Origin: Candidatus Aminicenantes bacterium
GTDB lineage: Bacteria > Acidobacteriota > Aminicenantia > UBA2199
Direction of reading: 5' to 3'
Assembly: GCA_026393775.1 (NCBI GenBank)
Contig: JAPKZM010000269.1
Location: 1 to 36,922 of the forward strand
DNA length: 36,922 nucleotides
Below are positions 4,714 to 25,734 of the stretch, piece by piece (the first letter of the stretch is position 1; the number at the start of each line of letters is the position of its first letter). The position numbers were made by a program, and so were the translations under genes. The notes under the pieces are model-generated. The model was given only the letters and a program-made list of their open reading frames with translations. It ran no database searches and was not told where the DNA came from.

Positions 4714-4742
4714 GGTTTCTCCTGACCCAGCCGAGCTGGATA

Positions 4743-4813: not shown

Positions 4814-4868
4814 AAAAAAATATACGTGAATTAACCCCAAATGTCAAATGGTTTTCGTTCGAGGAAAA

Positions 4869-4877
4869 TGTTATACT
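4869..4877 (+). promoter_or_regulatory. Candidate extended -10 element (TGtTATACT) ending 7 nt before the ATG at 4885, implying a leaderless transcript
   Basis: TG at 4869-4870 and TATACT at 4872-4877. No Shine-Dalgarno sequence lies between it and the start codon. Confidence 0.35.
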
Positions 4878-4884
4878 TTCATCG

Positions 4885-6723
4885 ATGAACAAAAAAATTC
4901 TCCATAATCTGCTGTTGCTGGCAGCCGTTGTTTTTGCCGTCAACCTGATCTTTTTCAGCTACGGCCAATGGTTGGTTTTCCCTTTGCTCGGAGCCGTTGG
5001 CCTGCTGGCGGCGGTGGTTGGCCTGGGTTTTTTCATCGCCTGGAAATTCAGAATTGCCGCTGTCGGGATGTTGGAAGCCGCGGCACTGGGATTGATGGCC
5101 AGCACGGCCTATTTCTACTTGGCTGCTTTTTTTAAAATCCTGAACAGGGTGACCGTATTGACTTTCTTCGCCGGGGCGGCCATCCTTCTGCTTTTCCTGA
5201 TGCTCAACAAGAACCGGCACCGGGAAAGCCTGGCCGGGCTGAAACAGTTCTTCGCCAGGCCGCAGTTTGAATTCGCTATTTTTGTTTTTCCCATGTTCTA
5301 CGCCGCGTTGCCGCCCTCTTTTTACGACTCGCTGGTCTATCACCTGGGAATTCCCAATTTATACTTGCAAAGCGGCGGTTTCGTCGCCACGCCGCAGTTC
5401 ATGTTCGCCAACACGTTCATCTATTACGAGATTGCCATGATTCCCGGCGTGTTCCTCGGAGATCTCGTGCCGCGCCTCTTCCATTTTTTGCTGGGCGCGC
5501 TTTTTGTTTTGGCCGTCGCCGATGAGGCCGTTGAAAATTGGGGCGTCAAGAAGCGCTGGCTCCTGCTTTTGGCGATCGTTTCGCTGCCCATGACCCTGTT
5601 CCTGCTGGTTACCTGCAAGAATGACCTGTGCAGCGCCATTTTCATTTTTTTGGCCATCAAGCAGCACCAGCGGCAAAATTTCAAGTTATCGGCCGTTTTC
5701 TGGGGTTTCGCCGTGGGGGTCAAGTATTTCAACCTGCTGCCGCTGGCGCTTTTCCTGCTCTTGACCATCAAGCCATGGAAGAAAGGCGACCTGAAAAAAT
5801 TGGCGCTCACGGCCCTGATCGTTTTTCTGGTCGTCTCTCCCCTGCTGGTAAAAAATTACCGCTTTATTGGCAATCCTTTTTTTCCATTTTTCCAGAAAAC
5901 ATTCCCGGCCGCTTTCTGGGACGGGGAGCGACAAACTCGGTTGCAGGCCGAGGTGGGACAAATCGTTCATTCGCCTGGCGATTTTTTCAAATTGCCCTAT
6001 AGCTTGTCTTTTTATTCCTATGGCTACGGAGGATTGGTCGGGCCGATTTTTTTAATTTTCCTGCCTTTCCTGCTCCTGCACCCTTTGGTTCAAAAAAAAT
6101 GGCTGTTGTGGTCTTTGTTGCTGCTGGCCATTGCCCCTTTCTTTACGGCCAGTATTCGTTTCATCTACGTGGTTTTCGTCCTGCTGGCGATTTTTTCCCT
6201 GCAGGCATACGAAGCAATAGGCGGCGCGATCGCCAAACTGATTTTTTATCTGCTCATCGTGATTAATTTTGTCATGGGCTTTGCGCTGCTGGAAAAATTT
6301 TATCTGGCGCACACCATGCTGAGCGGAAAATTTTCCAGCCAGCAGTACCGGGAATATTTTTTCCCGGCTTTCCCGGTGTTTGCTTACATCAACGCGAACG
6401 CTCCGCCCGGGGCAAGGATCTTGATTGCCGGGGAAGCGCGCAATTATTATCTGAAAAGGCCGTACCAGGTTTCTTCGGCCATAGATTATTGCATTTTAAG
6501 AAAATACCTGGAACCCAGCTCGAGCGTTGGCGAATTTGTAACGGCCATGCACAAGGAGGGATTCTCCTATCTGGTGGTGAACGCCGGTGAATTGCGACGC
6601 TTGCAGAAAAATTACGCGATTTTGAGCGCGGGGGAACAGGAGAAGCTGTTTTATTTCCTCAATTCCTTGACGCCGATTTTCCGCCAAGGATCTGTCTGCC
6701 TTTATAAAATCGGCGATCGTTAG
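4885..6723 (+). CDS. Polytopic membrane protein, probable GT-C-fold glycosyltransferase (PMT/ArnT-like) with a C-terminal soluble domain
   Basis: 612 aa with at least 10 predicted hydrophobic helices. An acidic or aromatic first-loop segment (PPSFYDSLVYHLGIP) follows the early helices. The hydrophilic C-terminal domain is about 150 aa. The family assignment rests on architecture, not on a recognised signature. Confidence 0.5.
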   Translation: MNKKILHNLLLLAAVVFAVNLIFFSYGQWLVFPLLGAVGLLAAVVGLGFFIAWKFRIAAVGMLEAAALGLMASTAYFYLAAFFKILNRVTVLTFFAGAAILLLFLMLNKNRHRESLAGLKQFFARPQFEFAIFVFPMFYAALPPSFYDSLVYHLGIPNLYLQSGGFVATPQFMFANTFIYYEIAMIPGVFLGDLVPRLFHFLLGALFVLAVADEAVENWGVKKRWLLLLAIVSLPMTLFLLVTCKNDLCSAIFIFLAIKQHQRQNFKLSAVFWGFAVGVKYFNLLPLALFLLLTIKPWKKGDLKKLALTALIVFLVVSPLLVKNYRFIGNPFFPFFQKTFPAAFWDGERQTRLQAEVGQIVHSPGDFFKLPYSLSFYSYGYGGLVGPIFLIFLPFLLLHPLVQKKWLLWSLLLLAIAPFFTASIRFIYVVFVLLAIFSLQAYEAIGGAIAKLIFYLLIVINFVMGFALLEKFYLAHTMLSGKFSSQQYREYFFPAFPVFAYINANAPPGARILIAGEARNYYLKRPYQVSSAIDYCILRKYLEPSSSVGEFVTAMHKEGFSYLVVNAGELRRLQKNYAILSAGEQEKLFYFLNSLTPIFRQGSVCLYKIGDR

Positions 6724-8258
6724 GGAGAGGTGAATTCCAGGCGGTACAAACGGAAGCCGCCGGGAAGCCTGGATACAAGGGCCGAACGCATGCTGGCGCG
6801 GAACCGGGAATATTCACCCTCCGGGATGTGATGGAAAGCTAGAAGATTTTTCAACGCATCATTCATCTCGACGATTTCGCCGAGCGCATAAATCGGCTGC
6901 CCCATGGCGGCGTTTTTTTTGAGCCGGGCTTGGATCTCGGCAAGGGAGTGTCCCTTACCCAGCAGCCAATCGAGGATGAGCACTTCGCGCCAGGCAAAAT
7001 AGGGAAGATAGATTTTTCCGAATGCGTAACCCGGGGGATTCCCGGTGATCAGGATTTGCCCCCGTTCCGGAACTTGCTTTTGAATACCTATAGCGACCTG
7101 GTAGTTGATGTTATTGTTGATGTCGTTCAAGGGCATGATGCCGTAAGAAAAATTGATCCATAGAAGAGCGCCGGCCAGAAAAGCGCCGATAATGTTGGCG
7201 ATAAACGGCTTCAGGTCGCCCAGGGCGGTGATGGCGATCAGCAGCAGGGGGACCATGATATGAATTTTGTATTCGATGTTTCCCGTATCCCAGAATGAAA
7301 AAAAAAGGAAATAGGGCGCGAACCAGAAGAACATGGCCCATTTGAATGTTCTCCCAACCGGCTGGGCCGCCGGCTTGCATGCCACGGCCAGCAAGGCCAG
7401 AAAACCGGCCGATATCAACCATGTCCAAATCCCGGCTTGGGTGAGCAATGCGTGCTGCAGACCGCTCAGTGAAGAAATGAATGTCGTCAATCCCGGTGGG
7501 TGAAAGGACGTGAGGCGATAACCGGAATAGATATCGGGACCGAAAAAAATATTGTAGAGGATGCGGAAAATGGGCTTGTGGGAAAGGGCGGCATACGTAC
7601 CGTAAAAGATCAGTCCGAACGATAAATAGGCTAGGAGAAATTGCAGGTAACGGCGCCAGGATGAATGCTTTTGCAGTAGATAGAAAAATACGGTCCCGAC
7701 GATCAGTCCATTGGTCAAATGGAATCCGGCCGCCAGGACGAAGCACAATGCGGAAAGAGCCAGAGTAGAAGCCCTGGTTTCCCGGAAAACAAGCAGGTAC
7801 AAGCCGGCCAGCGTGAAAAAAACTCCCGGCATATGGACTTCGGCATCGACCGCGTATAACCAGAAAGAGTATGAGAAAGCGACAACCGCCACGCCGAACA
7901 GGCGCAGAGCCGGAGTCAAGCCGATTTTTTTCAGCATCCGCCCCACCAGCCCAAGGTTCAGGATGGCGAACAGCATCGAAAAAAGTTGCAGGTGAAAGAA
8001 TTCAAGGACCCGGTAATGAAAAAGGGCTTCCAGGACGCGGTAGATCAGGTAGTTAGCCGGGAAATAAAGCAGATGATGGATCTGGGTCACGCCCAGCCAG
8101 TCATGCTTGATCAATGCATAACGCAGGAAGTGGCTGAACACGGTGCCGTCAAAACTATAGTTGACCGGCAAAAAGCTGAAATAGAGCAGGGCGCTGGTGA
8201 TCAGGAACAAGGAAATTGGCCAGCCGGAAAAATAGGACGAGCAGGCGAATTTTTTCAT
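6720..8258 (-). CDS. Polytopic membrane protein, probable GT-C-fold glycosyltransferase (DUF2723/PMT-like)
   Basis: 512 aa and multi-pass. The first-loop segment is NYSFDGTVFSHFL...HHLLYFPANYLIY, and a soluble domain forms the C-terminus. It is the last gene of the long minus-strand array, with an ATGA overlap to the upstream gene. Confidence 0.45.
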   Translation of the reverse strand: MKKFACSSYFSGWPISLFLITSALLYFSFLPVNYSFDGTVFSHFLRYALIKHDWLGVTQIHHLLYFPANYLIYRVLEALFHYRVLEFFHLQLFSMLFAILNLGLVGRMLKKIGLTPALRLFGVAVVAFSYSFWLYAVDAEVHMPGVFFTLAGLYLLVFRETRASTLALSALCFVLAAGFHLTNGLIVGTVFFYLLQKHSSWRRYLQFLLAYLSFGLIFYGTYAALSHKPIFRILYNIFFGPDIYSGYRLTSFHPPGLTTFISSLSGLQHALLTQAGIWTWLISAGFLALLAVACKPAAQPVGRTFKWAMFFWFAPYFLFFSFWDTGNIEYKIHIMVPLLLIAITALGDLKPFIANIIGAFLAGALLWINFSYGIMPLNDINNNINYQVAIGIQKQVPERGQILITGNPPGYAFGKIYLPYFAWREVLILDWLLGKGHSLAEIQARLKKNAAMGQPIYALGEIVEMNDALKNLLAFHHIPEGEYSRFRASMRSALVSRLPGGFRLYRLEFTSP

Positions 8259-9733
8259 TGGCGCGAACGGTCGGCTAGGTTTTGACCGAAATAGTGGTTC
8301 AGGATCAGGGGGAAGACATGGGTCGGCGCGAGGGCTGCGTCCAGCTGCGCATAAGGGTATCCGGGCAGGTACAGAGCCAGAAAAATATTTCTTTTTTCCA
8401 CTTCGGGAACGACCTGCAAGAACGGTTTGCGAAATGAACCGCGATAGCCATGATCGGATTGGACGACGATGATCGGCGGCGCGGCGGATTTTTTCAGGAT
8501 CATTTCCATGGTTTCGGCCAGCCTGCGGCTGATATAAAGGTACTGCTCCAGATAATACTTGCGCACGGAATAATCGATGGCATGTTCCGCCGGCACGACT
8601 CCACCTTCCTGGTCAAAGACAAAGGGGGCGTGGGGACTGAAGAGATGGACCAGGACGAACTTCGGCCCGGCCAGTTTCACGATCGCCGGCATTTGTTCGA
8701 AGACGTACAAAACCCGCCTGCGGAAGAACAGCGCATATTTGTCATCGTCCTTCTGCCATTTTTCGACCAGCGGGTACAGGATCGACATTTCGGCCAGGGT
8801 CCGGTAAAAATCGTTAAAAAAAACCGAGGCGCGCTCCTGGGCATAGAAATAATGTTGTTGCGAATCGTCCAAGGCGGTCAGGCCTTCATAGGGGAAATCG
8901 ACAATCGAATACCCCTGTTCCTTCAGGAAGCGGCTGACCTTGTTTTGCCTGATCAGAAGGGCCGGATCGGTCTTGGCCGGAAGTTTTCCCATGTTCAAGA
9001 CGGAGGCGATCGCCTCCGGGGTCCAGACGTACAAGCTGCGGCTTCGTTCGGCGATGAAGAAGCCCGCCGCCCGCATCCGTTCCGTGAATGCCGAGTTGTC
9101 ATAATGGAATATATTCGCGATCGTCTCCAGGCTGGCGAACTCATCAATAAAAAAACAATATATGTCGGGTTTCGAGGACGCTGGAGCCGGGAGCCGCATT
9201 TCCTTTTTTTGTAAAAAAGTGCGGGCGTTTTTCACGTTCGCGTTGCGGACATGGTAAAGGAGGATCCCGCCGACGTTCCAGGCCAGCAGCGCCAGCATGA
9301 TGACGGTTAAAATTTTGCCGGTAGCGCTGAACGAGCGTTTTGACCTGAGGATCCAAAAGACAGCGAGTGCCACGCCTGCGCCTATCGCCAGCGCCGGCGG
9401 CAGGGCGGAGAAAGGCTTGCCCAGACGGCCGATGACTTCGGCGAGCGCGTCATGGATCAGCTGGTAATAAAAAAACAACAGCAGAATCAAAAAAATGACC
9501 AGAGCCTTTTTCCCCCTGTTTTTGACGACTGGCTTCAGGCAAAGCCATAAAGCCATGGTCAATGCGAGCGCCAGGGCCATGGGCGGGAGGATCACCCTGA
9601 AAGCGACTTCGCTGATATTTTGCTGGTAAAGAAAAAGGATCGGATAAAGCGAAAAAAGATAAATGTAAACGGAATGACCGCAACCGCATCCTCTCCAGTT
9701 TACCCGCCATTTTTTCATTGTCTCATTTTCCAT
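8255..9733 (-). CDS. Membrane-anchored sulfatase/alkaline-phosphatase-superfamily transferase (LtaS/EptA/OpgB-like)
   Basis: About 5 N-terminal TM helices precede a soluble domain. That domain carries PDIYCFFIDEFAS (metal-binding acidic pair), YVWTPEAIASV (candidate nucleophile Thr) and VVQSDHGYRG (the family DHG motif). An alternative start is MKKW at 9718. Confidence 0.6.
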   Translation of the reverse strand: MENETMKKWRVNWRGCGCGHSVYIYLFSLYPILFLYQQNISEVAFRVILPPMALALALTMALWLCLKPVVKNRGKKALVIFLILLLFFYYQLIHDALAEVIGRLGKPFSALPPALAIGAGVALAVFWILRSKRSFSATGKILTVIMLALLAWNVGGILLYHVRNANVKNARTFLQKKEMRLPAPASSKPDIYCFFIDEFASLETIANIFHYDNSAFTERMRAAGFFIAERSRSLYVWTPEAIASVLNMGKLPAKTDPALLIRQNKVSRFLKEQGYSIVDFPYEGLTALDDSQQHYFYAQERASVFFNDFYRTLAEMSILYPLVEKWQKDDDKYALFFRRRVLYVFEQMPAIVKLAGPKFVLVHLFSPHAPFVFDQEGGVVPAEHAIDYSVRKYYLEQYLYISRRLAETMEMILKKSAAPPIIVVQSDHGYRGSFRKPFLQVVPEVEKRNIFLALYLPGYPYAQLDAALAPTHVFPLILNHYFGQNLADRSRQ

Positions 9734-9778
9734 GCTGGGCAGGCTTAGCGCGCATGTCCGAAGCGCAGCCAGCCCGAC

Positions 9779-11797
9779 CTATTCTATCAGCTCGGATGCA
9801 TCTTTCAAATCCAGCCGCTCCAGGCGTTCACGCAACGCGGGTTGCCCGGGATTCAGGCGCAGCGAGCGCCGATAGAACGACACGGCTTCATCGGCCCGCT
9901 GCAGGTCGAAAAAAAGATTGCCGAGCGAGTTCAGGATGCGGAAATCGTTTTTTCCTTTTTCAACTATGGCCGCGATCATTTTATTCCCCTCCTCTTCGTG
10001 CCCGGAAAGGAACGCCAGTCTGGTTGCATGCAGGTGATCGTCGAATTTAAAGAGGATTCCTTTTGGCCACAGTTTCCAGGCGAAATCGAAGTTTTCATAA
10101 CTCAGAAAATATAAGGACCGCTGCCTTGGTGACATGGACTGAAAGGCGAGTTTTTCTTTTTGGATCAGGACGAGCCAATCGCTGGATTGAGGGCCGGCCA
10201 GCGCCAGCGCAGCTTCCCGGGCTTTTTCCCAGGCGGCGAAAGCCAAATAAAGTTTAATGCCTATCTTTTTGTTTTGCTCGCTGGGCGAAATAGAAGCCAT
10301 TGCCTGAATGGTTGCTTCTGCTTCTGTCAGTTCACCCCTGGCCCAATGGATCCGCAGGAGTTTCATTAGGCGGTAATTGGTCCGTGGAAGATCAAGGGGC
10401 AGGGAACGCACTTTTTCAAGCCAGTCCAGGCTTTCTGCGTAACGAGCTTGGCTGCAGGCAATATCGGCCAACCACAGAGCGATTGTCACGGCGGTGGACT
10501 TTGCCATCTCGAAGGTCAGTGCCCGGCGTAAAAGAATTTCACTGCGGACGAAATCGCCGTTGGCGCGTAGTTGCCCGGCGTATTTGCTCAGGAAAAAACT
10601 GTCATTGGGACAGGAGCTTAGGGCGCTGGCCCAGAAACTCGTTTCGTTGTGATATCTTGGGAGGTTGCCGATGACGGTTGAGGATGAAATAATGAGAAAT
10701 GCGGCCAAAACGAGTTTTTCGAAAAATCGGGGCAGAGAGTGGAGCCAATGGCTCAGAAGCCACACCAGGCCGATGGTAGGGAGCATCAAATAGCGGGTGG
10801 AGATGTTGTATGGATAAGTGGGAGTAAAGGCAAACAGCATGTAACCGACCAGATGGGGGACGCTCCAGATCCATGCCTGTAGATATTGGATTTTTTTACG
10901 TCCCAACCACAAAAGCATCACCATGAGTGAAAGAAAAATAAATCCTAGAATTGAGTTGATTAAGGTTGTAACTGTATTTACGGGCAGGAACATATCATAG
11001 TGAAATGGAAATATAAGTGAACGGAAATAGTAGCCCAGTACTCCAAGTAGGACACGGCAGTTTTGCCAAAGCGAGGGAAAGAAGTGGATGGGGATGCCGC
11101 TGCGGCCAATGACCACTGACTTGACTCCCCAATACAAAGCTGAGACGACCAGGTATGTGGCATGAATGGGATAGTAAAGACGCTTGCGCCGGCTTAGCTC
11201 ATGCAAAAGAAAAACCGGCAGAAAAAAGAGGGCCGCTTCCTTAGAAAAAAGGGCCAGCAGGTAACTTGCGGCCGAAAACATCCCGAGCAGGATGGTTCTC
11301 CTGGTTAGGAAGAGATCGAATAGATAGAGGGCCAGCAGTCCGAAGAAAAGCATCAGCAAGTCGTTGCGGCCGACGACCCAGGAGATACTGTCCAGGTTGA
11401 GTGGGAAAAGGGCGAAGAGCAAGACTGCCGTCTCGGCAATTCCATTGACTGCGGTTTGCCGGCTGAGAAAAAAGTACATCATGATCAAACTGGCAATAAA
11501 GATGAGCAGGTTCACCAGGTGCAAGTGGAAGGAGTCCAATCCCCAAATGGCTTTTTCTATCATGAAGGAAAGGACCGTCAGCGGCCGGTAATAATCGTAG
11601 CCGGAACCTCTTTGGCTGGTCGAAGCCCAATAGCCGCTGCGAAAAGGGGCAAGCAAGGAAAATTCACCTTGCAGTATGTCGTTTTCCAAAATCATGGGTT
11701 TGTCATCCCAGATCAACTCGTGCTTAATGGAGGGGAGATAAACCAGTAAAGGCAGCAGGACCAGTAAACAGAGAAAAAGGATCTTTTTATGCATCAT
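9779..11797 (-). CDS. TMTC-like GT-C glycosyltransferase (PMT_2/DUF1736-type membrane domain) fused to C-terminal TPR repeats
   Basis: 672 aa. The N-terminal loop reads ELIWDDKPMILENDIL...YDYYRPLTVLSF, the DD and YYRPL motifs I associate with TMTC/PMT_2 proteins. About 10 TM helices follow. The C-terminal ~250 aa holds TPR-like repeats (e.g. ADEAVSFYRRSLRLNPGQPALRERL). Confidence 0.65.
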   Translation of the reverse strand: MMHKKILFLCLLVLLPLLVYLPSIKHELIWDDKPMILENDILQGEFSLLAPFRSGYWASTSQRGSGYDYYRPLTVLSFMIEKAIWGLDSFHLHLVNLLIFIASLIMMYFFLSRQTAVNGIAETAVLLFALFPLNLDSISWVVGRNDLLMLFFGLLALYLFDLFLTRRTILLGMFSAASYLLALFSKEAALFFLPVFLLHELSRRKRLYYPIHATYLVVSALYWGVKSVVIGRSGIPIHFFPSLWQNCRVLLGVLGYYFRSLIFPFHYDMFLPVNTVTTLINSILGFIFLSLMVMLLWLGRKKIQYLQAWIWSVPHLVGYMLFAFTPTYPYNISTRYLMLPTIGLVWLLSHWLHSLPRFFEKLVLAAFLIISSSTVIGNLPRYHNETSFWASALSSCPNDSFFLSKYAGQLRANGDFVRSEILLRRALTFEMAKSTAVTIALWLADIACSQARYAESLDWLEKVRSLPLDLPRTNYRLMKLLRIHWARGELTEAEATIQAMASISPSEQNKKIGIKLYLAFAAWEKAREAALALAGPQSSDWLVLIQKEKLAFQSMSPRQRSLYFLSYENFDFAWKLWPKGILFKFDDHLHATRLAFLSGHEEEGNKMIAAIVEKGKNDFRILNSLGNLFFDLQRADEAVSFYRRSLRLNPGQPALRERLERLDLKDASELIE

Positions 11798-13079
11798 CGC
11801 CTGGAAACGGACATACGTGGCGCGGGGAATCGGTTTGTGGCTTGGCGGCTGGCTTGGCCAATGAGTCGAGCATGTCGTTGAACCGTGTCATCTGCCTTGG
11901 CCAGGAATACGCGCCGATGTTTTCCTGGTTACGCTGCGGAGAACGATAAAATATGGGATCAAAAAGGATCCGCTCCATGAGACAGGCGATCGCCAGTTCA
12001 TCCAGCGGCGGAACGCACCAACCGCATCCGCAGTCTTCGACGATCCGCCGCACGTGGGCATCATCGGTGAGCGCCAGAACGGGTTTTCCGGAATATAGGT
12101 ATTCAAACAGCTTCAAAGGGATACCGCTGCGCACGCCCGGACGGGTGATGAGCAAGAGCAGGTCGGCGGCCTTCTGGTAGGCCAGAGTTTCCCGACGATC
12201 CTTGAGCGGATGGATCACCACCACGCCGGTAAGGATCAAATTCTCCAACAAAGACATTTCGCGGCGCGAATACTCTCCGATCAGGTGGAGACGAAAAGGC
12301 CTGTTGGGATTATTTCGGCCAGCCTGGCGCAAGGCGGCGAGAAAAGGATCGATAGTAGTGGCGCTGTCCGAGAGGGCGAACCTCCCGGTGTGCACAATAT
12401 GAAAACAACCTTGAGCCAATGATGGTTTGGGCAAATCATGCCATTCGTCTTCATCGTAGCCGTTGTAAACCGTTTCGCAGCGACAACCTGGATAAACGCG
12501 GCTGAAATAATCCTGCAAGACTGGAGTCACAGCCACGACCAGTTGCGAACTGGCGACGACCGCCGCCTCGGTCTCCTTGTATCTTTCATTCACACAATGA
12601 TGGGAATGCAACCGTTTTTCTTCTATGGGGTGGAATAGCAAACCGTCACGGAAATCACTGATCAGGGGGACGTGAAAGCGGCGCGATAATTCCAGGCCGA
12701 TTTCCAGCACTTCCTGCGGCGGATAAGTAACTAGGATCAGGTCAGGGAGGCAAGCCTGGCGGATTTCCTCGGCCCGGCGCAATACGGCCCGGCGCCAGGG
12801 GGAAAAAATCGAGGCATAGTGGCCGCAGTAATTCTGAAGCTCCGCCCATGCCCGCCAGAATAGCCAACAGATCAATTTCTTACCCTGATGGGCGCGTACA
12901 AAGGCCGGGTCATGGACACGGATAATTTCAGGGCTGGTGTCGGCCATCTCCTCATAGCCATGGGTAAGGATGGAAACGGTATGGCCGCAGCGCCTTAACC
13001 ATTGGGCCATCTGTAGCGGGCGCATTGCACCGGCGTTGTTGAGCGGAGGAAAATAGTAAGCGACCAGCAGGATGTTCAT
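11787..13079 (-). CDS. GT-B glycosyltransferase (family 4-like)
   Basis: The N-terminus MNILLVAYYFPPLNNAGAMRPLQMAQWLRRCGHTVSILT is typical of Glyco_trans_4. The C-terminal half has the GT-B motif ...LKLFEYLYSGKPVLAL. Confidence 0.8.
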   Translation of the reverse strand: MNILLVAYYFPPLNNAGAMRPLQMAQWLRRCGHTVSILTHGYEEMADTSPEIIRVHDPAFVRAHQGKKLICWLFWRAWAELQNYCGHYASIFSPWRRAVLRRAEEIRQACLPDLILVTYPPQEVLEIGLELSRRFHVPLISDFRDGLLFHPIEEKRLHSHHCVNERYKETEAAVVASSQLVVAVTPVLQDYFSRVYPGCRCETVYNGYDEDEWHDLPKPSLAQGCFHIVHTGRFALSDSATTIDPFLAALRQAGRNNPNRPFRLHLIGEYSRREMSLLENLILTGVVVIHPLKDRRETLAYQKAADLLLLITRPGVRSGIPLKLFEYLYSGKPVLALTDDAHVRRIVEDCGCGWCVPPLDELAIACLMERILFDPIFYRSPQRNQENIGAYSWPRQMTRFNDMLDSLAKPAAKPQTDSPRHVCPFPGDDA

Positions 13080-13081
13080 GG

Positions 13082-14350
13082 CTAGACTTTCCCGAGCACC
13101 CGCTGGAACAAGTCATGAAATCGTCGCCCGATCTCGCGGGGTGCGAAACGCTCGGTGACTATCCGGCGGCCGAGCGCTCCATCGAATGTGGGCAAGCGGT
13201 CAACCATTTTTTCCAAGGCTGACCCCAGAGCATTTTCATCTCCGAAGGGCACCAGGATGCCCGATCCCTCCGGCAGGTACTCAGCCACCGCTGTCGGCGT
13301 GGAAACCACGGCCAAGCCACTTGCCAGGGCTTCGGCGGCCACGCAGGAAAAGGTTTCGATTTCACTGAATACAACGAGGATGTCCCCCTGGCGCATGGCT
13401 GCCGCTACCTCCTTTTCGGGAAGCGGGTCCTTAAAAAAGACTACGCGGTTGAGCAACCCCAGGAACCGGGCTTGCTCCTCGCATTCCTCGCGGGTCGGTC
13501 CGTCTCCGATCACCAGCAGGTGAATGTCGGGACGGTGCCGGGCCAATATGCCCATGACGCGTATGATACCGGCAATATTCTTTGATTTCTTTTGGAAGGA
13601 AACATGCAGGATGGAGAAAACATTCCGGGAGGTATTTTTTTTCTCTGGAAAAAAAATTTCCGGGTCGATGACATTTCCGATAACCCGCCAAAGAGGCGCC
13701 CTCAAACCGTGAGCGCGCATGCCTTGGGCCAGCATTTCAGAGACCGTGGTCACGGCGGCGCAATGCGCGCTGAAACGCCTGATAAACCAAGTTCGCAGGC
13801 GATTTCCCCTACCGGGAGGTAGCAGATATTGGGTCCAGTGCTCACTGAAGACCAGCGGCATCCGGCGCCAAAAAAATCGCAAGAAAAGGATCAGCCCGAT
13901 CGGCGGCGTAACCTGAACCTGGATCAGATCGGGTTTTTGGAACGATAGCGGTAGAGCGCGGCGGCCAGCCGATGCGGCGGCCATGAAACGCAGGGTGTTG
14001 GATAGGGCTTGCCAGGGGGAAGGCGGAGCCGGCCGGAAGTAGACACGCACGGTAGGCAGGCCGTTTTCGACCTCATAGACAATCTCGCGCTGCGTTTTCA
14101 AGGACGGATCCGGGGTAACAAAGAGGACCGCTGTGGGGCAGAACGCAGCAATTGCGGCCGTCTGGCGGTTGACGAAGAGGCCGCCGAGAGGGGCGTTCCG
14201 GTTCGGGTACCACCAGCTTGGCCAAACGAGTACCCGTGGGCCGGGCGCCGACCCGGTGTCCATGTTTTCTTGCTCAAACACGCAGCTACCTCCAACCTGG
14301 GGAAAGCGATTCTCTATTATTGCAGGGCCGGGGAGTGAATACAATCCCAC
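13082..14350 (-). CDS. GT-B glycosyltransferase (family 4)
   Basis: Has the EX7E-type motif FSEIETFSCVAAEALASGLAVVSTPT. An alternative start is MDTGS at 14263. Confidence 0.8.
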   Translation of the reverse strand: MGLYSLPGPAIIENRFPQVGGSCVFEQENMDTGSAPGPRVLVWPSWWYPNRNAPLGGLFVNRQTAAIAAFCPTAVLFVTPDPSLKTQREIVYEVENGLPTVRVYFRPAPPSPWQALSNTLRFMAAASAGRRALPLSFQKPDLIQVQVTPPIGLILFLRFFWRRMPLVFSEHWTQYLLPPGRGNRLRTWFIRRFSAHCAAVTTVSEMLAQGMRAHGLRAPLWRVIGNVIDPEIFFPEKKNTSRNVFSILHVSFQKKSKNIAGIIRVMGILARHRPDIHLLVIGDGPTREECEEQARFLGLLNRVVFFKDPLPEKEVAAAMRQGDILVVFSEIETFSCVAAEALASGLAVVSTPTAVAEYLPEGSGILVPFGDENALGSALEKMVDRLPTFDGALGRRIVTERFAPREIGRRFHDLFQRVLGKV

Positions 14351-14353
14351 TAC

Positions 14354-15532
14354 TCAGCGTGATCCCAGCAGAGATGCCAGGAGGGGGAGGATCTTCTGTG
14401 CTTGTTGGCGCCGGGAATAGGGCTCGGGGTCCAGGTCGGGAGCAAGACAGCCAGGCCGCATGCGGATGACGTTGCGAAGCGCGGCAGCCGCCTCAGCGGT
14501 TGTCGACACCTGATAGGCATAGCGGAAAGGCTTCAGCAGCCGGGCCAGGGCGTCATCCGTTTGGCAGATGGCCAGGATCGGCCTGTTCATGCGGATGGCG
14601 TCATAGACTTTGGTGCCGACCATAAGGGAAGAGCGGTGGTTGACGACCATGATATCCATGGAGGTTAAAAAAGCGATGCCAGCCTCGTAATCACTATAAC
14701 CGTGAAAGTGGAGATCGTTCGCGAGGCCGTGGCGGGCGGCGGCCTCGGAGAGGGCTTTCTCTTCTCCAGCAACACCCAAGTGGTGGATCTCTATGGAGAA
14801 CTCCCCGGTCAGTTCCGCGACCGCAGCTAGAAGGAGCAACGGATGATCGGGATGGTACGGGGAAAACTTTCCCCAGATGCCCAGGCGCAGGACCGCGCCC
14901 AGGGGCGAGGGCGGGGCAGGCGAGCCGGGGCTTCCCTCGAAACCATTTTCCAGCACTTGGAAGCGCTCCGGCGGCAGGTCGGGGAAGGCAGCACGGCGCA
15001 GGGTCGCCATCTCCGGGGTGACATCGGTGATGACCTGGGCATTGCGGACGGCACTTTGCTCCAGGTGACGGACCAGGGGAGCGCTGAAACGCAGGGATAC
15101 ATGAGACCCCAGGTCCCAGGCATCGCGAAAATCAAGCCAGTAAGGTACATGGAAGCGTTTCCCCAGGCCGGGGGCCAGGGTAAAAGAGAAAAAAGGGCCG
15201 CCGCTAAAGACAAGCAATCGTGGATGCTCCTGCTGGATGAGATGCTCCAAGGATCGCCGGAAAGGGCGCTGCCAGGTAAGCCATTCCTCGATGAAGGGCA
15301 AGCGCGGGATCGGCGGCGGCCGCCAGGAAGGCGCGGGCACGGTGTGAACGGTTATTTTTTCAAGCCCGGCTGAAAAAGGCACCGCGGCTTCCCGAACGCT
15401 CAACGGGGAAGTGACCACGGCCACGGTATAGCCGTTTTCAGCAAAGAAGCGACTCAGGAAACCCCAGCGCTTGGACCCGACCCCCGGGTAGGGAGGGAAG
15501 TAGAAGGAGACCAGGAGAAGATCAACGGCCAT
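14354..15532 (-). CDS. GT-B glycosyltransferase-like protein
   Basis: The N-terminus MAVDLLLVSFYFPPYPGVGSKRWGFLSRFFAENGYTVAVVT resembles Glyco_trans_4. The C-terminal half is a Rossmann-like GT-B domain. Confidence 0.7.
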   Translation of the reverse strand: MAVDLLLVSFYFPPYPGVGSKRWGFLSRFFAENGYTVAVVTSPLSVREAAVPFSAGLEKITVHTVPAPSWRPPPIPRLPFIEEWLTWQRPFRRSLEHLIQQEHPRLLVFSGGPFFSFTLAPGLGKRFHVPYWLDFRDAWDLGSHVSLRFSAPLVRHLEQSAVRNAQVITDVTPEMATLRRAAFPDLPPERFQVLENGFEGSPGSPAPPSPLGAVLRLGIWGKFSPYHPDHPLLLLAAVAELTGEFSIEIHHLGVAGEEKALSEAAARHGLANDLHFHGYSDYEAGIAFLTSMDIMVVNHRSSLMVGTKVYDAIRMNRPILAICQTDDALARLLKPFRYAYQVSTTAEAAAALRNVIRMRPGCLAPDLDPEPYSRRQQAQKILPLLASLLGSR

Positions 15533-16724
15533 GGGAATGTGCGTTGGATCTCTCGATCAATTCGGCGTAGCGGCCTTCCAGCCGCCGGATCTCCCGGTCC
15601 GCATCGTGATGCGCTTCCATGTGGCGGCGGCCGGCAATGCCCATCGCCGCCCACGATTCCTGGTTCTTGAGCAAGCGGGCCGTGTTTTCAGCCAAACCCG
15701 CGATATCGCCCTCCGCACTGAGCATGGCGCTTCCTCCAGGCACGACGACATAGGGAATGTCGGCGTGGCGGGTGGCCAGGACCGGTAGGCCCAATGCCTG
15801 CGCTTCAAGAATGGTGGTCGGTGCGCCGCCCTCGCTGTCGCCGTCGGCGGCGGTCATGCTCGGATGGATAAAGAGATCGGCGTGAGCCATCTGCTCCAGG
15901 TAGGCGGAGTAATCGAGGAAACCCATCATGCGGATGAATGATTTCATGGCGTGGAGCTGGATGAAGTCCTCGATCTCCTGCCGTTGCGGCCCGTCGCCGA
16001 TGATGCGGAATTCAAAAAAAGGACAGGCCGAGCGGATGGCGTTCAAGGCCGCCAGCGCGACCAGCAGCCCTTTCTTTTCAATCAAGCGGCCGCTGAAGAT
16101 GATGGTGACGGCTTCGCCTTTCGCTTTGGGACGGCGCGGACGGAAGGACAGAGCGGCCAGCGGAATGGCGATAGGCTGGATCTCGATCTTCTCCGTGGGA
16201 CAGCCGATCCCGGCCAGGCGCTCTTTCATGTGCGGTCCTTCGACTAAAAAGAGGTCGCCTTCCTCGAAAAGCGACGGATATCCTTCCGCGCAGGAAGCCA
16301 GGGAAGTGGCCCTTGACATGTCGTGGCCGTAAAAAGTGGTCACCAGGGGGAGGCGGAGGGCCCGCTTCAGGCGCAGCGCCCAGATGCCGTTGCGGCCGAA
16401 ATGGGCATGCAGCAATACAGCCCGGCGTTGTTTTAAAAACCTCTCTGCTCCGAGTTCCCGGTCTAGCAGGCGGCGGCCGATCCCCTGCCGGAGCCAGCGC
16501 CAGCTCCCGACCGGCACGGACATGGAAAAACGATCGGCCTGGGGGAGCGGGAAGTGCTCCAGGTTGCGGTATTTCCAGGAGACAAGGACGGGATGAAAAC
16601 GGCGCATATGGGTGATGATGTTGTAGATGAAGGTCTCCGACCTGGGCAGAAAGAAGTGGTGAACGTGGGCCACGGCATCGCCGGCCGCGGCTGCCGGTTT
16701 GTTTATTGCAGGGTTCAGGATCAT
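15522..16724 (-). CDS. GT-B glycosyltransferase (family 4)
   Basis: The C-terminal motif is DSEGGAPTTILEAQALGLPVLATRHADIPYVV, and the layout is a typical two-domain GT-B. ATGA overlap with the flippase stop. Confidence 0.8.
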   Translation of the reverse strand: MILNPAINKPAAAAGDAVAHVHHFFLPRSETFIYNIITHMRRFHPVLVSWKYRNLEHFPLPQADRFSMSVPVGSWRWLRQGIGRRLLDRELGAERFLKQRRAVLLHAHFGRNGIWALRLKRALRLPLVTTFYGHDMSRATSLASCAEGYPSLFEEGDLFLVEGPHMKERLAGIGCPTEKIEIQPIAIPLAALSFRPRRPKAKGEAVTIIFSGRLIEKKGLLVALAALNAIRSACPFFEFRIIGDGPQRQEIEDFIQLHAMKSFIRMMGFLDYSAYLEQMAHADLFIHPSMTAADGDSEGGAPTTILEAQALGLPVLATRHADIPYVVVPGGSAMLSAEGDIAGLAENTARLLKNQESWAAMGIAGRRHMEAHHDADREIRRLEGRYAELIERSNAHSHGR

Positions 16725-18232
16725 GGCGTCACGTTTTCATCCAGCCGGCGCCTGGCCTGCCATTGTTCACGCAGTATTCGGCGCAGGTCCTGGTAAGCAA
16801 CCAGGCGGGAAAAATGGATCAGCACGAGATAAACCATTATTCCCGCTCCCACCAGGGCAAGGAGGGAAATCCAACCGGGCCTCAGGAAAATATATCGCTG
16901 CAAGGCCATGACGGCAGCGCCCATGCCGGCGCTGCAGGCAAAAATGCCGGCCAGGTTGGAGACCATGCGGGCGAAAGTCAGCCCGATGATCCTGCCGGCG
17001 ATACGCCAGGAAGGATACCACAGGAGCAGGAACCCGCTGGCGGCGTAGGCGGTGGCCACGCCCTTCACCCCCCAGCGCAAGCCGATGATGAAGGCAGCTG
17101 CATAGACGACCCCGGCCGCCGCGCCGATACGAAGCATGGTGTCGGTGCGCCCCCGTGCCGTGTAGATCCATCCCAGGGTGGTCCCGACCGACTGCAGCAG
17201 GCCTACGATGGCCAGGATGCGCAGGATGGCGGCGGCATCCTTCCAAGGGGGGCCGAAGACGGTCACAATGAAAAGGTCGGCCAGCACGGCCATGCCGATC
17301 ATGAGCGGGAACGTGACCAAGGCGATCAGGCGCGCAGCGCGCAGGTAGATGGCGCGCAGGCGTTCGGTCTGGTCCTGAATGGAGGCCATGGCGGAGAACA
17401 TCACCCGCGAGACCGTGCTGCTCACCTGGCTGATCGGGTAGAGCATCAGGTTGTAAGCCCGGGAATAGATGCCCAGGGCGGCCGGCCCGATGAATTTCCC
17501 GACCAACAGGTTGTCCAGGTTGCGAATCCAGTAATTCAAGAGATTGAATCCCGTCAGCGATGAGCTGAAACTGCGAAGTTCCCGCCAAGCCGACAGGTCA
17601 AACGCGAGTGAAAGCTGCCAGCGGCTCAACCGCCAGCTCAGAACCGCAATGAGCAGGGCGGTTAATAGGGACTGGACCACCAGGCTCCAGATGCCCCAGC
17701 CGTTCAAGGCCAGCAGGATGGCGACCGCCCCCGAAAAAAACACTGCGACGGTTTCTATCTTGGCGATTTTCCGGAAGGCCATGTTTTTTTGCAGCAGGGC
17801 CATCGGCACTCCCAAAAACGCGGTCAAAATAAAAGTCGGAGCGATACCCAGGCACAGCGGGGCCAAACGGGGATTCTTGTAGAAGCCGGCGATCAACGGA
17901 GCGGCGGCGACCAGTAACAGGGCCAGGGTGATGCCGACAAACAGCTGCAGGCAGAACACAGTGGCCTCATGCCGTTTCCCGGCGTCCTGTTTCTGGATCA
18001 AGGCGGCACTTAGCCCCAGGTCGCTGAAAGAGGCGGCGAAGCCGGTGAAGACGAGGACCATCGCCAGCGTTCCAAAATCACCCGGAACCAGAAGCCTGGC
18101 CAGCACGATCGATACGCCGACCTGCAACACCTGGCGCAGCACTTGCGACAGCCCGCTCCAGCCCAGACCGTGAAGGGTGCGTTGCAGCAGGGAATCAGCG
18201 CTGTTGCTTTTCTGGTTCTCTTGGCTACTCAT
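16721..18232 (-). CDS. wzx: Wzx-like oligosaccharide flippase (MOP/polysaccharide biosynthesis protein family)
   Basis: About 12-14 TM helices. The N-terminus ...LLQRTLHGLGWSGLSQVLRQVLQVGVSIVLARLLVPGDFG is typical of this family. The ORF extends to 18301, but the ATG at 18232 forms an ATGA overlap with the upstream stop and removes a non-hydrophobic, Arg-rich extension. Confidence 0.8.
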   Translation of the reverse strand: MSSQENQKSNSADSLLQRTLHGLGWSGLSQVLRQVLQVGVSIVLARLLVPGDFGTLAMVLVFTGFAASFSDLGLSAALIQKQDAGKRHEATVFCLQLFVGITLALLLVAAAPLIAGFYKNPRLAPLCLGIAPTFILTAFLGVPMALLQKNMAFRKIAKIETVAVFFSGAVAILLALNGWGIWSLVVQSLLTALLIAVLSWRLSRWQLSLAFDLSAWRELRSFSSSLTGFNLLNYWIRNLDNLLVGKFIGPAALGIYSRAYNLMLYPISQVSSTVSRVMFSAMASIQDQTERLRAIYLRAARLIALVTFPLMIGMAVLADLFIVTVFGPPWKDAAAILRILAIVGLLQSVGTTLGWIYTARGRTDTMLRIGAAAGVVYAAAFIIGLRWGVKGVATAYAASGFLLLWYPSWRIAGRIIGLTFARMVSNLAGIFACSAGMGAAVMALQRYIFLRPGWISLLALVGAGIMVYLVLIHFSRLVAYQDLRRILREQWQARRRLDENVTP

Positions 18233-19077
18233 GCAATCTTGGTTACCCACAGGTCGATTTGCTTTTCTTCCTGCAAAAAACGGCCGGGGCGTGCCAACCA
18301 ATGCCGCAGAGACTGGCAGGCGGCAAACATATGGCGGGTTGGTTCCGGCGTGGCGGATGTTCTGGAGATACTGGTTGCGTACGGGAGTTCTCGGACCAGG
18401 GAGATGATCTGTCTTTCGGTGATCCAGTTGAGCTCGTGCAGAGCGGTTAAAGGACGGCCCAGAAATTTCAAATAGAGGGCGGCGATGTTCTTGTTCATCT
18501 TCGGCCAGAAAAAGATTCCATAGTGGGGCTCAAAAAAACCACTGTAGTCCGGAGCGCGGACATATAGAACCCCGCCCGGTTTCAAAACCCGCAGCATCTC
18601 ACTCAGGCATTGCCTGACATCACGTACATGCTCCAGGGTCTGGAACGTGGTGACCAGTCCGAAATGGGCATCCGGAAAGGGAAGAGCCTCGCCCCAGCCG
18701 GGGACAAGCCTCGGCCGATAGGTTGCGGGGTATCCTGAGGCCGCAATCTTCTTGGAAAAATATTGCTGCTTCCAGGATTCGGGCTCCACTCCCCAGACGT
18801 CGCGACCGAGATGCAGGCCGTGCAGGAGGAAGGTGCCGCAACCGGCAGCTATATCCAATATCCTTTCTTTCCCTGGCAAGCGCTCACGGATGACACTCCA
18901 GCGTCCGTCGTAGTTGTCCCTGTCGTTGAACCAATTGTTCGTGATATGGGAAATACGGTCGGGGTCGTCGTTTCCCGAATAGGCTCGTATGCCTTGCAGG
19001 ATGCGTTCGCGCAATTCATGCCATAACTCCCGCTCCATTGGGTTCAACGGATTCGGTGCTGGTGGCGATACGTTCAT
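18229..19077 (-). CDS. Class I SAM-dependent methyltransferase
   Basis: Motif I is ILDIAAGCGTFLL, and the post-I and motif III region reads LRVLKPGGVLYV. Confidence 0.8.
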   Translation of the reverse strand: MNVSPPAPNPLNPMERELWHELRERILQGIRAYSGNDDPDRISHITNNWFNDRDNYDGRWSVIRERLPGKERILDIAAGCGTFLLHGLHLGRDVWGVEPESWKQQYFSKKIAASGYPATYRPRLVPGWGEALPFPDAHFGLVTTFQTLEHVRDVRQCLSEMLRVLKPGGVLYVRAPDYSGFFEPHYGIFFWPKMNKNIAALYLKFLGRPLTALHELNWITERQIISLVRELPYATSISRTSATPEPTRHMFAACQSLRHWLARPGRFLQEEKQIDLWVTKIA

Positions 19078-19784
19078 TTTGGCCCGGAGATCGCTGGCTT
19101 ACGGGCTATGACGACGTACGCCCAGGTCCATTTTTCGTTGCGATGCAGTTTCTCCAGGGCCAGAAAGAACAGGTTATTAAAGGCAGTGCATAGCGAAATA
19201 AAGGGCCAGAAAATTCCCCACTTGAAACTGTTCAAATAATAATTGAATTCACTTCCGAAGGTCACGAAAAAACCTGAAAGGGCCTTGATCTCGAGCACCT
19301 CGAACCCGGCTTTGGCAAAAATGTGGTCGATGCCGTAGCGGGTAAAACGGAAAAAATCGCGCGGCTCCTCGTGCAAATGCCAGGTCTGTGGGGCGGTGAA
19401 TACCGCCGTGCCGCCGGGTTTGAGCACGCGCAATGCCTCCCGCAGCGCTGTTTCCGGTTCTTCCAGGTGTTCGAGCACCGATGTGCACAGAACGCAGTCG
19501 AACTCGCCGTCGGCCGCGGGCAGCGCGTACGCCGTGCCGGTGCGGTCGATCGCCGAGTGATCGTGTGAGCTGCCGGCATGATCGACACCGACATAATGTT
19601 CAACAAAGCGGCCGACCAGGTCGCTTTTCCACTTGTTTCCGCAACCGATGTCGATCAGGTTGCCATGGAAGTGGCTGGCTGCGGCGGCTTCGATCTGGGC
19701 GCCGGCCCTTCGGATTACCAACCAGCCGGGATGGCTCAGTGGGTAACGGGCATAATAGCGCCGGCTCGGATTTTTAACAGCCAT
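19074..19784 (-). CDS. Class I SAM-dependent methyltransferase
   Basis: Motif I is LIDIGCGNKW. Also present are FDCVLCTSVLEHL and LRVLKPGGTAVFT. Confidence 0.8.
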   Translation of the reverse strand: MAVKNPSRRYYARYPLSHPGWLVIRRAGAQIEAAAASHFHGNLIDIGCGNKWKSDLVGRFVEHYVGVDHAGSSHDHSAIDRTGTAYALPAADGEFDCVLCTSVLEHLEEPETALREALRVLKPGGTAVFTAPQTWHLHEEPRDFFRFTRYGIDHIFAKAGFEVLEIKALSGFFVTFGSEFNYYLNSFKWGIFWPFISLCTAFNNLFFLALEKLHRNEKWTWAYVVIARKPAISGPK

Positions 19785-20743: not shown

Positions 20744-20744
20744 T

Positions 20745-21566: not shown

Positions 21567-21576
21567 TTCATGTTCC

Positions 21577-23733: not shown

Positions 23734-23774
23734 CTGATTTATTCTGTTATTAAAATTATTCAGTCGCCAATGGC

Positions 23775-25278: not shown

Positions 25279-25734
25279 ATGAACAAGAAAGGTTTTACAT
25301 TGATTGAATTGCTGATCGTTGTGGCCATCATCGGTATCGTGGCCGCCATCGCGATTCCAAACCTGTTGGTCGCGTTGCAGAAAGGCAAGCAGAAAGCGAC
25401 GATGGGCGACATGAAGTCGGTCGGCACCGCCTTGGAAGTCTATACCACCGACAATTCGATGGTTCCCAATGCCGATCTCATCACTCTCAACACGGCCACC
25501 TATTTTATCCCCTTCTACATCAAGGTCCTGCCGTTGGTAGATTCCTGGGGAACGGCTTGGGATTATGCATCCGGGGCCACCCCCAGCGACCAGTATTCGG
25601 TCACCTCTTGGGGCCGTGACAAGGCAGCCGCAACGATTGGGACCATGTATCAAGTGACCAAAATTGGCGATTTCAACAACAACATCACCTTCTCCAATGG
25701 TCAGTTCACTCTCGGGCCGATAGTCAAAAAATAA
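25279..25734 (+). CDS. Prepilin-type (class III signal peptide) protein, GspG-like pseudopilin/pilin
   Basis: MNKKG|FTLIELLIVVAIIGIVAAIAIPNLL carries the prepilin peptidase site and Glu at +5. The GspG-like globular part reads ...LPLVDSWGTAWDYASG...VTSWGRDKA. Strong SD. Confidence 0.9.
   Translation: MNKKGFTLIELLIVVAIIGIVAAIAIPNLLVALQKGKQKATMGDMKSVGTALEVYTTDNSMVPNADLITLNTATYFIPFYIKVLPLVDSWGTAWDYASGATPSDQYSVTSWGRDKAAATIGTMYQVTKIGDFNNNITFSNGQFTLGPIVKK

Follow-up and report, generated by a model that had tools for sequence, protein, structure and literature searches.

A group of GT-C and alkaline-phosphatase-superfamily membrane protein genes at the end of a glycoconjugate locus in Candidatus Aminicenantes

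We analysed a 36,922-nt stretch of DNA from a Candidatus Aminicenantes bacterium (contig JAPKZM010000269.1; the whole stretch is called the window below), and in it four neighbouring open reading frames (ORFs), here named A, B, C and D, which an earlier note made from the sequence alone had described as consecutive periplasm-facing membrane enzymes. All four ORFs were recovered where that note had placed them; a detail that it did not state is that A lies on the strand opposite to the other three (Table 1). A is convergent on B, and the two stop codons overlap by 4 nt. On the minus strand, the start of D is overlapped by 11 nt by the last of four GT4 glycosyltransferase genes and B and C overlap by 4 nt, so that a long operon ends with D, C and B, which are translationally coupled to the GT4 genes upstream. 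This operon also encodes a Wzx-type flippase: D, C and B form the tail of a Wzx/GT4 glycan operon. Divergent from its head lie a gene for a pilin-like protein and two genes for Wzy_C-domain proteins. A to D are the extracytoplasmic tailoring end of one glycoconjugate locus, which extends from about 4.9 to 29 kb of the window.

Full-length homologues were obtained for each of the four proteins, in numbers from dozens to hundreds and with E-values from 0 to about 1e-100, nearly all of them in Candidatus Aminicenantes metagenome-assembled genomes (MAGs) or in metagenome contigs. A single-protein genome scan, made in the work on D, matched four Aminicenantes-type MAG contigs only. The relatives of A to D that were compared all come from uncultured organisms. 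We conclude that A to D are real, conserved genes of Candidatus Aminicenantes, an uncultured diderm phylum; lpxD is present in the window. Conservation counts given below were taken over family alignments of 55 to 71 sequences, and L001, L002 and so on are labels of the related loci or contigs compared with the window.

Table 1. Features of the glycoconjugate locus and of its surroundings in the window.
Feature	Position (nt)	Strand	Size	Assignment and matches
Gene group at the A end	2635-4713	-		250-aa ORF, S8 subtilase, SMC-like ATPase
A	4885..6723	+	612 aa	DUF8201 (PF26626) GT-C glycosyltransferase
B	6720..8258	-	512 aa	TMEM260-like GT-C glycosyltransferase
C	8255..9733	-	492 aa	divergent alkaline-phosphatase-superfamily (sulfatase-fold) membrane protein
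D	9779..11797	-	672 aa	GT-C membrane domain and C-terminal tetratricopeptide repeat (TPR) array
D, membrane domain (aa 1-384)	10646..11797	-		TMTC/TfpW-type GT-C, 11 helices
D, TPR array (aa 385-672)	9779..10645, including the stop codon	-		about 8 helical hairpins, predicted periplasmic
Four GT4 glycosyltransferase genes	11787..16724	-
Wzx-type MOP flippase	16721..18301	-		Pfam Polysacc_synt_3, 1.7e-90; NCBIfam PRK10459, 294.7 bits (cut-off 273)
Gene group upstream of the flippase	18229..24884	-		three S-adenosylmethionine (SAM) methyltransferases, sulfotransferase, FemAB/GNAT-like acyltransferase, two DegT-type sugar aminotransferases
Sulfotransferase ORF of this group	19784-21737	-		Sulfotransfer_3
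Type IV pilin / GspG-like prepilin	25279..25734	+	151 aa	Pfam N_methyl and T2SSG, NCBIfam
Wzy_C-domain membrane protein, first	25881-27197	+		Pfam, NCBIfam; with Pfam TPR
Wzy_C-domain membrane protein, second	27127-28977	+		Pfam, NCBIfam
DUF1573 / HYDIN-like protein	28978-29670	-	230 aa	double Ig-fold; NCBIfam OS_HP2, choice-of-anchor D
PEP-CTERM/XrtA-type matches	11787-16724; 21577-22578; 25881-27197			stp2 glycosyltransferase; pepcterm_femAB; PrsT TPR lipoprotein

D was modelled with AlphaFold2 on an alignment of 71 sequences (pLDDT 92.4). Membrane helices extend up to residue 382 and are followed by helical hairpins, over residues 385-672, to the C-terminus. These hairpins, the TPR matches of the model in Foldseek and one repeat that Pfam detects at residues 620-653, with a Pfam TPR region given as 608-659, all bear out the C-terminal TPR array that had been proposed. 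A search of PDB with the single sequence of D returned TPR proteins only, the full-length profile search was dominated by TPR matches, and the top Foldseek matches of the full-length model were TPR proteins, with PglB at rank 50 (probability 1.0). Because TPR matches swamped both the profile and the model searches, an alignment of 18 diverse D relatives was built from which the TPR part had been cut off (A5). Nine of these 18 relatives match Pfam PMT_2, one matches TMTC_DUF1736 and one PMT. The A5 profile had no sequence match among PDB chains. Compared by hhalign with the TMTC protein of Anopheles, A5 gave a probability of 99.6% and an E-value of 4.6e-24, the 349 aligned columns pairing D 1-355 with TMTC 4-388, at an identity of only about 20%. 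By profile comparison, D has the TMTC layout, as the earlier note had recognised, and the homology of its membrane domain holds without any contribution of the TPR part.

The motifs that had been quoted for D are present in its translation (W30-D31-D32 and Y69-Y70-R71-P72-L73). They were compared with the set that Eisenhaber et al. (PMC7801869) defined for TMTC: M1 DD, M2 SHKSYRP, M3 RxD, M4 KE(T/Q)xxT, M5 DW and M7 ERxxY. M1 is found as D31-D32, D31 being invariant (71/71), M3 as R144-x-D146, and M4 as K186-E187 (K186 in 69/71). M2 is reduced to Y70-R71-P72, with P72 in 71/71 and without the His-Lys pair; M5 reads D268-M269 (Asp in 48/71), and M7 reads T334-R335-Y336, where R335 is present in 71/71 and Thr or Ser replaces Glu in the close clade. 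K186 and R335 are conserved Lys/Arg residues at the positions that bind phosphate in the TMTC and ArnT models. D also has a Tyr/Pro-rich motif, Y257-x6-P264-F265-x6-P272, of which Y257 and P264 are each kept in 70/71 sequences, F265 in 47/71 and P272 in 51/71.

Counting the helices of the model gives 11 membrane passes, and Lys/Arg clusters occupy alternate loops (residues 113-119, 166-168, 203-206, 300-302 and 354-361). A periplasmic location is therefore predicted for the first loop and the catalytic motifs as well as for the TPR array. None of the relatives is known to be a polymerase with a cytoplasmic TPR domain.

D thus shares with metazoan TMTC1-4, the cadherin O-mannosyltransferases of family GT105, the 11 transmembrane (TM) helices followed by a TPR array that is predicted to be non-cytoplasmic, and the motifs DD, YRP, RxD, KE and R-Y in the same loops. 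It differs from them in the missing His-Lys of M2, in D-M for DW and in the Glu of ERxxY. Further differences are that a single TPR of D is recognisable by Pfam, that TMTC_DUF1736, the loop that joins TM7 to TM8, is not matched by D, and that D is bacterial, with a carrier that would be undecaprenyl rather than dolichyl.

The claim that bacterial homologues of this layout are essentially uncharacterised was wrong. Full-length TMTC-like proteins of prokaryotes were noted already in 2021 (PMC7801869), and TfpW of P. aeruginosa, a GT-C enzyme of 646 aa encoded beside pilA, has been studied as the group IV pilin D-arabinofuranosyl transferase (TfpW preprint). TfpW uses a polyprenyl-phosphate sugar to glycosylate pilin. 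Its N-terminus is cytoplasmic, it spans the membrane with 11 TM helices, and its C-terminal TPR domain is periplasmic; periplasmic loop 1 contains an essential DDX motif and loop 4 the motif YX6PFX7P. By the published description, D resembles it in length (672 versus 646 aa), in the number of TM helices, in the predicted cytoplasmic N-terminus and large periplasmic C-terminal TPR domain, and in having ArnT as nearest template. The DDX motif corresponds to D31-D32-K33, and YX6PFX7P approximately to the Tyr/Pro-rich motif of D. Both are linked to a type IV pilin gene, for D in the same locus in the window and in the same operon in L013, described below. D differs from TfpW in its place, which is the end of a Wzx/GT4 operon rather than directly downstream of the pilin gene. 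Because the window is without DprE1/DprE2 or DPPR-synthase genes, another difference from TfpW, the donor of D is probably not D-arabinofuranose. In the literature, TfpW was the only characterised GT-C O-oligosaccharyltransferase with a TPR domain that was found.

In L012 (2220-11949), four long genes rich in TPR stand in tandem. One of them encodes a distant relative of D, and at least this relative and the product of the next gene downstream are of the GT-C/TPR type. IS66 and DDE transposase genes come after the row and suggest that this enzyme type has been amplified locally.

B was placed by its own profile match and by that of its family. Its match to Pfam TMEM260-like, 24.2 bits, is equal to the cut-off of 24.2, and among its relatives 40/70 match TMEM260-like (best E 7e-10) and 15/70 match PMT_2. 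With the family profile, human TMEM260 (9rql, 6e-8), yeast Pmt1 (3e-5) and ArnT (3e-4) were found in PDB, over the membrane part only. The first outer loop of B contains D37 (68/70) and H62, which compare with D52 and H67 of TMEM260. When the B and D families were aligned by hhalign (97%, E 1e-10), the N-terminal GT-C modules matched and D37 of B fell on D31 of D. From these sequence comparisons, B is a TMEM260-like GT-C protein.

A had no match in a local Pfam scan, TMEM260-like included, and its family profile matched nothing in PDB. Precomputed annotation places it in PF26626 (DUF8201), and it matches NCBIfam LIC_10190_fam weakly. Its AlphaFold2 model (pLDDT 89.4) was compared by Foldseek with known structures: ArnT 5f15 came first (E 5e-5, TM 0.49/0.55), followed by ALG12, ALG9, AftD, AftA and STT3, the GT-C matches having probabilities of 0.98-1.0. 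A transporter was considered for A and rejected, as the PepT and NCC matches had probabilities <0.1 and TM-scores of about 0.1. In A, four extra N-terminal helices precede the ArnT-like GT-C core, in which D148 (55/55) and H153 lie in the first outer loop and K245-N-D247, K280 and R425 are further core residues. Behind the core, a C-terminal beta/alpha domain of about 135 aa (model strands 512-515, 527-529, 562-566, 599-601 and 604-608) contains an invariant Asp, D534 (55/55).

Thus A, B and D all belong to the GT-C superfamily, as the earlier note had proposed for its three polytopic proteins: A by Foldseek, B by its profile against TMEM260, Pmt1 and ArnT, and D by hhalign to TMTC. The suspicion that these membrane domains might prove to be something other than GT-C, such as transporters, found no support. 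The acidic residue of the first extracytoplasmic loop (D31 in D, D37 in B, D148 in A) is conserved in all three families. A and B are also related over their C-terminal parts. hhalign of the two families (95.5%, E 1.5e-8) aligned A 245-612 with B 140-512, a region that includes the C-terminal beta/alpha domain common to both; in B it contains D430, which is Asp in 55/70 and Glu in 5/70 relatives. In human TMEM260, a GT-C plus Rossmann-like plus TPR O-mannosyltransferase whose structure has been solved, the Rossmann-like luminal domain ('palm') carries the catalytic base D441, and the TPR domain is necessary and sufficient to bind the acceptor peptide. By analogy, the beta/alpha domain of A and B, with its conserved Asp, may be reminiscent of the palm. 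A and B differ from TMEM260 in that they are without TPR 'fingers' and that the profile match covers the membrane part only.

C itself has no match in Pfam or NCBIfam, and a single-sequence search of PDB found nothing. Its relatives are more informative: 31/59 match Pfam Sulfatase, and the family profile gave weak matches to solved sulfatases (E 0.009-0.05) over the PDIY..D, PH.P and SDHG blocks. The motifs quoted for it earlier are present as D197-E198-F199, T238 and S426-D427-H428-G429. Among 59 sequences, H368 and D427 are invariant (59/59 each), D197 and T238 are each found in 57/59 and H428 in 52/59; H363 is also conserved. By analogy, T238 would be the putative nucleophile, and D197 and D427-H428 putative metal-site residues. 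The Cys/Ser-x-Pro-x-Arg sulfatase motif is absent from C; for this reason, and with a Thr conserved at the nucleophile position, the possibility that C is a true sulfatase was rejected. Five N-terminal hydrophobic segments, with Lys/Arg counts of 4, 1, 5, 2 and 4 in successive loops, form a positive-inside pattern, so that the N-terminus is predicted to be inside and the catalytic domain (160-492) outside. Judged through its family, C is a divergent membrane-anchored protein of the alkaline-phosphatase superfamily, in agreement with what had been read from its motifs. The phospho-substituent transferases with a Thr nucleophile, namely LtaS, EptA, PptA and GacH, have the same anatomy.

The arrangement was then compared among orthologous loci, whose D proteins are 48-73% identical to D of the window. 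D comes directly after the last GT4 of a Wzx-containing cluster in L001, L002, L003 and L004. The cluster ends with a convergent A in L002, L003 (two copies), L004 and L009. Within about 10 kb, genes like C are present in L001 (two copies), L002, L003 and L004; B was found only in the closest relatives. PMT_2 paralogues without TPR adjoin D in L001, L003 and L007. In two loci, D is directly followed by a GT2 gene encoding 242-247 aa (L003, 13981-14709; L004, 12103-12846), with full-length matches to AglJ, ArnC, PpgS and dolichyl-phosphate (Dol-P)-hexose transferase. To judge by these matches, it is probably a polyprenyl-phosphate-sugar synthase. The post-export decoration that the earlier note had suggested is consistent both with the position at the tail of a Wzx/GT4 operon and with this GT2 gene. 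L014 was rejected as a further example of a GT-C gene associated with C: the sulfatase beside its D-like gene is of the soluble SGSH type and is not a homologue of C.

Some differences in gene content were seen around B, C and D. About 290 bp are missing between C and B of the window (8259-8273) and present in two contigs that are ~99% identical to it (L005, 13375-13664; L006, 3522-3811), where what is left of a SAM methyltransferase, 76 aa with VLEVGSGIG, is encoded in the segment. The more distant L001 and L002 have a full methyltransferase gene at this interval, and the pattern looks like stepwise gene loss. Between D and C, the same two loci contain a gene, absent from the window, for a fusion protein of 1211-1222 aa with PAP2_3, weak MFS and spermine-synthase-like parts (L001, 12027-15695; L002, 12072-15707). 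The L001 cluster also has an Asn-synthase-like gene.

At the other end of the locus, the triad of pilin-like gene and two Wzy_C genes is kept beside the operon head in five related contigs (L016, L017, L019, L020 and L021). A tie between this triad and D-like genes was found in L013, an unrelated contig of 30% GC content, where the order (1702-9614) is purL followed by genes for a pilin-like protein, two Wzy_C proteins and two D-like proteins. There, the Wzy_C and D-like genes overlap (4 nt) and no other glycan genes are nearby; identity to the proteins of the window is 30% for the D-like protein and 42% for the pilin-like protein. Genes of O-oligosaccharyltransferases are typically linked to the gene of their pilin substrate. 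This gene order resembles pilA-tfpO and pilA-tfpW. The pilin-like protein is a candidate protein acceptor, and the two Wzy_C proteins are candidates for a polymerase, a ligase or an O-oligosaccharyltransferase. Pilin of Neisseria is O-glycosylated by the pgl system and receives phosphoethanolamine or phosphocholine through PptA. The enzymes concerned are a DegT-type aminotransferase and an acyltransferase, with GT4 enzymes, a flippase resembling Wzx, an O-oligosaccharyltransferase of Wzy_C type and, in PptA, a phospho-form transferase of the EptA family. One of each of these classes is found beside a pilin gene in the window, with C as the putative phospho-form transferase. The Neisseria system differs in having no PMT/TMTC-type GT-C enzyme, and its genes are scattered rather than gathered in one locus.

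We tentatively favour the following interpretation, in which the protein families, folds, conserved residues, operon structure and synteny are observed, and the topology, donor, phospho-substituent and acceptor are inferred. A to D would form an extracytoplasmic tailoring block whose target is the glycoconjugate of the locus, with D directed by its TPR array to a protein, most likely the pilin-like protein. The GT4 enzymes, aminotransferases, methyltransferases and sulfotransferase would assemble an oligosaccharide, with its modifications, on undecaprenyl diphosphate at the inner membrane face, and Wzx would flip it. At the outer face, with a polyprenyl-monophosphate sugar as donor, A, B and D would each add one sugar, by means of the conserved first-loop Asp and of Lys/Arg residues that bind phosphate. 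C would transfer a phospho-substituent, for example phosphoglycerol or phosphoethanolamine, from a membrane phospholipid via the Thr238/metal site, in the manner of LtaS, EptA, PptA and GacH. The periplasmic TPR domain of D would most likely recruit a protein acceptor, for which the pilin-like protein encoded at 25279-25734 is the best candidate; the two adjacent Wzy_C proteins may serve this same pilin as O-oligosaccharyltransferase or polymerase, and A and B may act on the same glycoconjugate.

A number of observations weigh against this interpretation. As regards the pilin, D lies 13.5 kb from its gene, on the other strand and not immediately downstream of it, and since the D-like genes of L011, L012 and L015 sit in unrelated contexts or alone, the link to pilin is not general. 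Being coupled to glycan-assembly genes, D of the window fits a glycan acceptor equally well. The likeness to TfpW is one of motifs and predicted topology, and the spacer after Phe in the Pro-rich motif has six residues in D, not seven. As regards the donor, neither a GT2 of the polyprenyl-phosphate-sugar synthase type nor a GtrA-type flippase was found in the window, nor in the extra 5 kb of L005, a near-identical contig of 47 kb. As regards C, its family profile matched no LtaS or EptA chain in PDB at E <= 10, and C is nearer in sequence to sulfatases than to either. In BcsC, PelB and AlgK, a periplasmic TPR domain has the role of a scaffold for the export of polysaccharide. The source organism of the window, finally, is uncultured.

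Several of these points also belong to the main rival explanation, which is quite possible, though we hold it less probable: that tailoring concerns the glycan only. A, B and D would add side-branch sugars from undecaprenyl-phosphate (Und-P) sugars to an O-antigen or exopolysaccharide once it is flipped or polymerised, C would add glycerol-phosphate or phosphoethanolamine to it as GacH does, the TPR array of D would be a scaffold towards the polymerase or the export machinery, and the pilin a bystander. The coupling of D, C and B to a GT4/Wzx operon in every Aminicenantes relative examined argues for it, as does the resemblance of the GT2 beside D in L003 and L004 to Und-P-sugar synthases, and lpxD is nearby. 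It also has precedents, several GT-C enzymes with a phospho-substituent transferase in one glycan locus being a known theme. For the decoration of streptococcal rhamnose polysaccharide (GacL/GacH) and of SCC of S. mutans, several GT-C enzymes and a phospho-substituent transferase are encoded in one polysaccharide locus, and the periplasmic GT-C enzymes of three-component (Gtr-type) systems use Und-P-sugars in O-antigen modification. An outer-face GT-C and a membrane-anchored sulfatase-fold transferase, putative in the case of C, inside a polysaccharide cluster are common to the present locus and to these systems (GacI/J/K/L with GacH, SCC, Gtr). However, their GT-C enzymes have no TPR, and GacH belongs to the LtaS family and has more TM helices. 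Here the organism is a diderm, the locus is Wzx-dependent, and the window is without GT2 and flippase partners.

Against glycan-only tailoring, the characterised enzymes that combine GT-C and TPR, namely TfpW, TMTC and TMEM260, all act on proteins, whereas polysaccharide-acting GT-C enzymes with extra domains tend to carry carbohydrate-binding modules (CBMs). We know of no characterised polysaccharide-modifying GT-C with a TPR domain. Moreover, the 37 kb contain no Wzz/PCP or Wza/OPX gene, and in L013 the operon of pilin, two Wzy_C and D-like genes stands without surrounding glycan-assembly genes.

In a more far-reaching reading, the locus as a whole would be a dedicated machine for O-glycosylation of the type IV pilin-like protein. 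Bacterial equivalents of the two protein-specific O-mannosyltransferase families of metazoans, the TMTC/TfpW-type D and the TMEM260-type B and A, would operate next to each other, and with the two Wzy_C/TPR proteins as O-oligosaccharyltransferases and C as pilin phospho-form transferase they would all serve one substrate. In this full form we consider the idea unlikely. If it were true, the TPR-guided, domain-specific logic of O-glycosylation on animal cadherins and plexins would have a counterpart in an uncultured bacterial phylum, with a genetically linked substrate. If the acceptor were only a polysaccharide, the locus would be an ordinary, gene-rich case of periplasmic glycan tailoring in a little-known phylum.

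It is improbable that A, B and/or D fill a gap in the Wzx pathway as its polymerase, ligase or en-bloc oligosaccharyltransferase and act on the diphosphate-linked repeat unit, not on a monophosphate sugar. The minus-strand operon does have Wzx and no Wzy, but the two Wzy_C proteins by its head can fill both roles. TfpW has been proposed also to polymerise, and its Pro-rich motif, common to D, is tied to chain-length control; against this, the conserved residues of D map to the motifs that bind monophosphate sugars in TMTC and ArnT, and a synthase-like GT2 adjoins D in L003 and L004. For A, a few family members show faint ALG3 or EpsG matches in Pfam, whereas its nearest structures, ArnT, ALG12 and ALG9, use monophosphate donors.

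Least probable of all is a modification of lipid A or core phosphates, rather than of the locus product, by an ArnT-like A and/or B and an EptA-like C: ArnT and EptA are the classic pair adding a sugar and phosphoethanolamine, ArnT is the top structural match of A and is matched by the B profile, for one DegT the best match in NCBIfam, below the cut-off, is ArnB, and lpxD is 20 kb away, but the window holds no ArnA, ArnC, ArnD set and its Arn-type matches are far below cut-offs, the genes with which A, C and B co-vary are D and the Wzx cluster and not those of lipid A, and C has no detectable similarity to EptA structures.

To return to the tailoring block that we favour, its arrangement is not unprecedented, since TMTC-like prokaryotic proteins, TfpW and streptococcal loci with multiple GT-C enzymes were known. 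The TMEM260-like nature of B, the beta/alpha domain common to A and B and the tie of the pilin and Wzy_C genes to D-like genes had not been seen in the earlier note. New is the pairing of TMTC/TfpW-type and TMEM260-type GT-C enzymes in one operon, as is the synteny between D-like genes and the pilin-Wzy_C module. The model-based assignment of A would be the first fold assignment for DUF8201, and C points to a family of sulfatase fold whose member here escapes Pfam. The analysis gives a first placement, at the level of prediction, for three families that are poorly described: that of C, DUF8201 and the TMEM260-like proteins of bacteria. Of the GT-C enzymes with TPR, which are abundant in environmental bacteria, TfpW is the only one studied, and in humans TMTC and TMEM260 are disease genes. 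The locus brings both enzyme types together in a compact, conserved set with a plausible linked pilin-like substrate and a linked glycan pathway, and so offers a concrete system for heterologous reconstitution.

A few observations concern the neighbouring genes. The matches of PEP-CTERM/XrtA type that fall in the locus (Table 1) are all far below their cut-offs for stp2, pepcterm_femAB and PrsT, and no exosortase was seen; a PEP-CTERM/exosortase exopolysaccharide system is not claimed. The presence of a sulfotransferase inside the glycan operon hints at a sulfated sugar. The sulfotransferase ORF and the methyltransferase ORF upstream of it share 365 nt, so that the real start of the sulfotransferase probably lies further downstream. 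At the A end of the cluster, the 250-aa ORF, which has no family match in Pfam or NCBIfam, is kept together with the S8 subtilase and the SMC-like ATPase in L005 and in L010 (38-62% identity in L010); the stretch fetched for L002 reaches only the start of this ORF. At the opposite end, the gene of the DUF1573/HYDIN-like protein overlaps the end of lpxD and is kept beside the Wzy_C genes in relatives, and its product is possibly an envelope protein.

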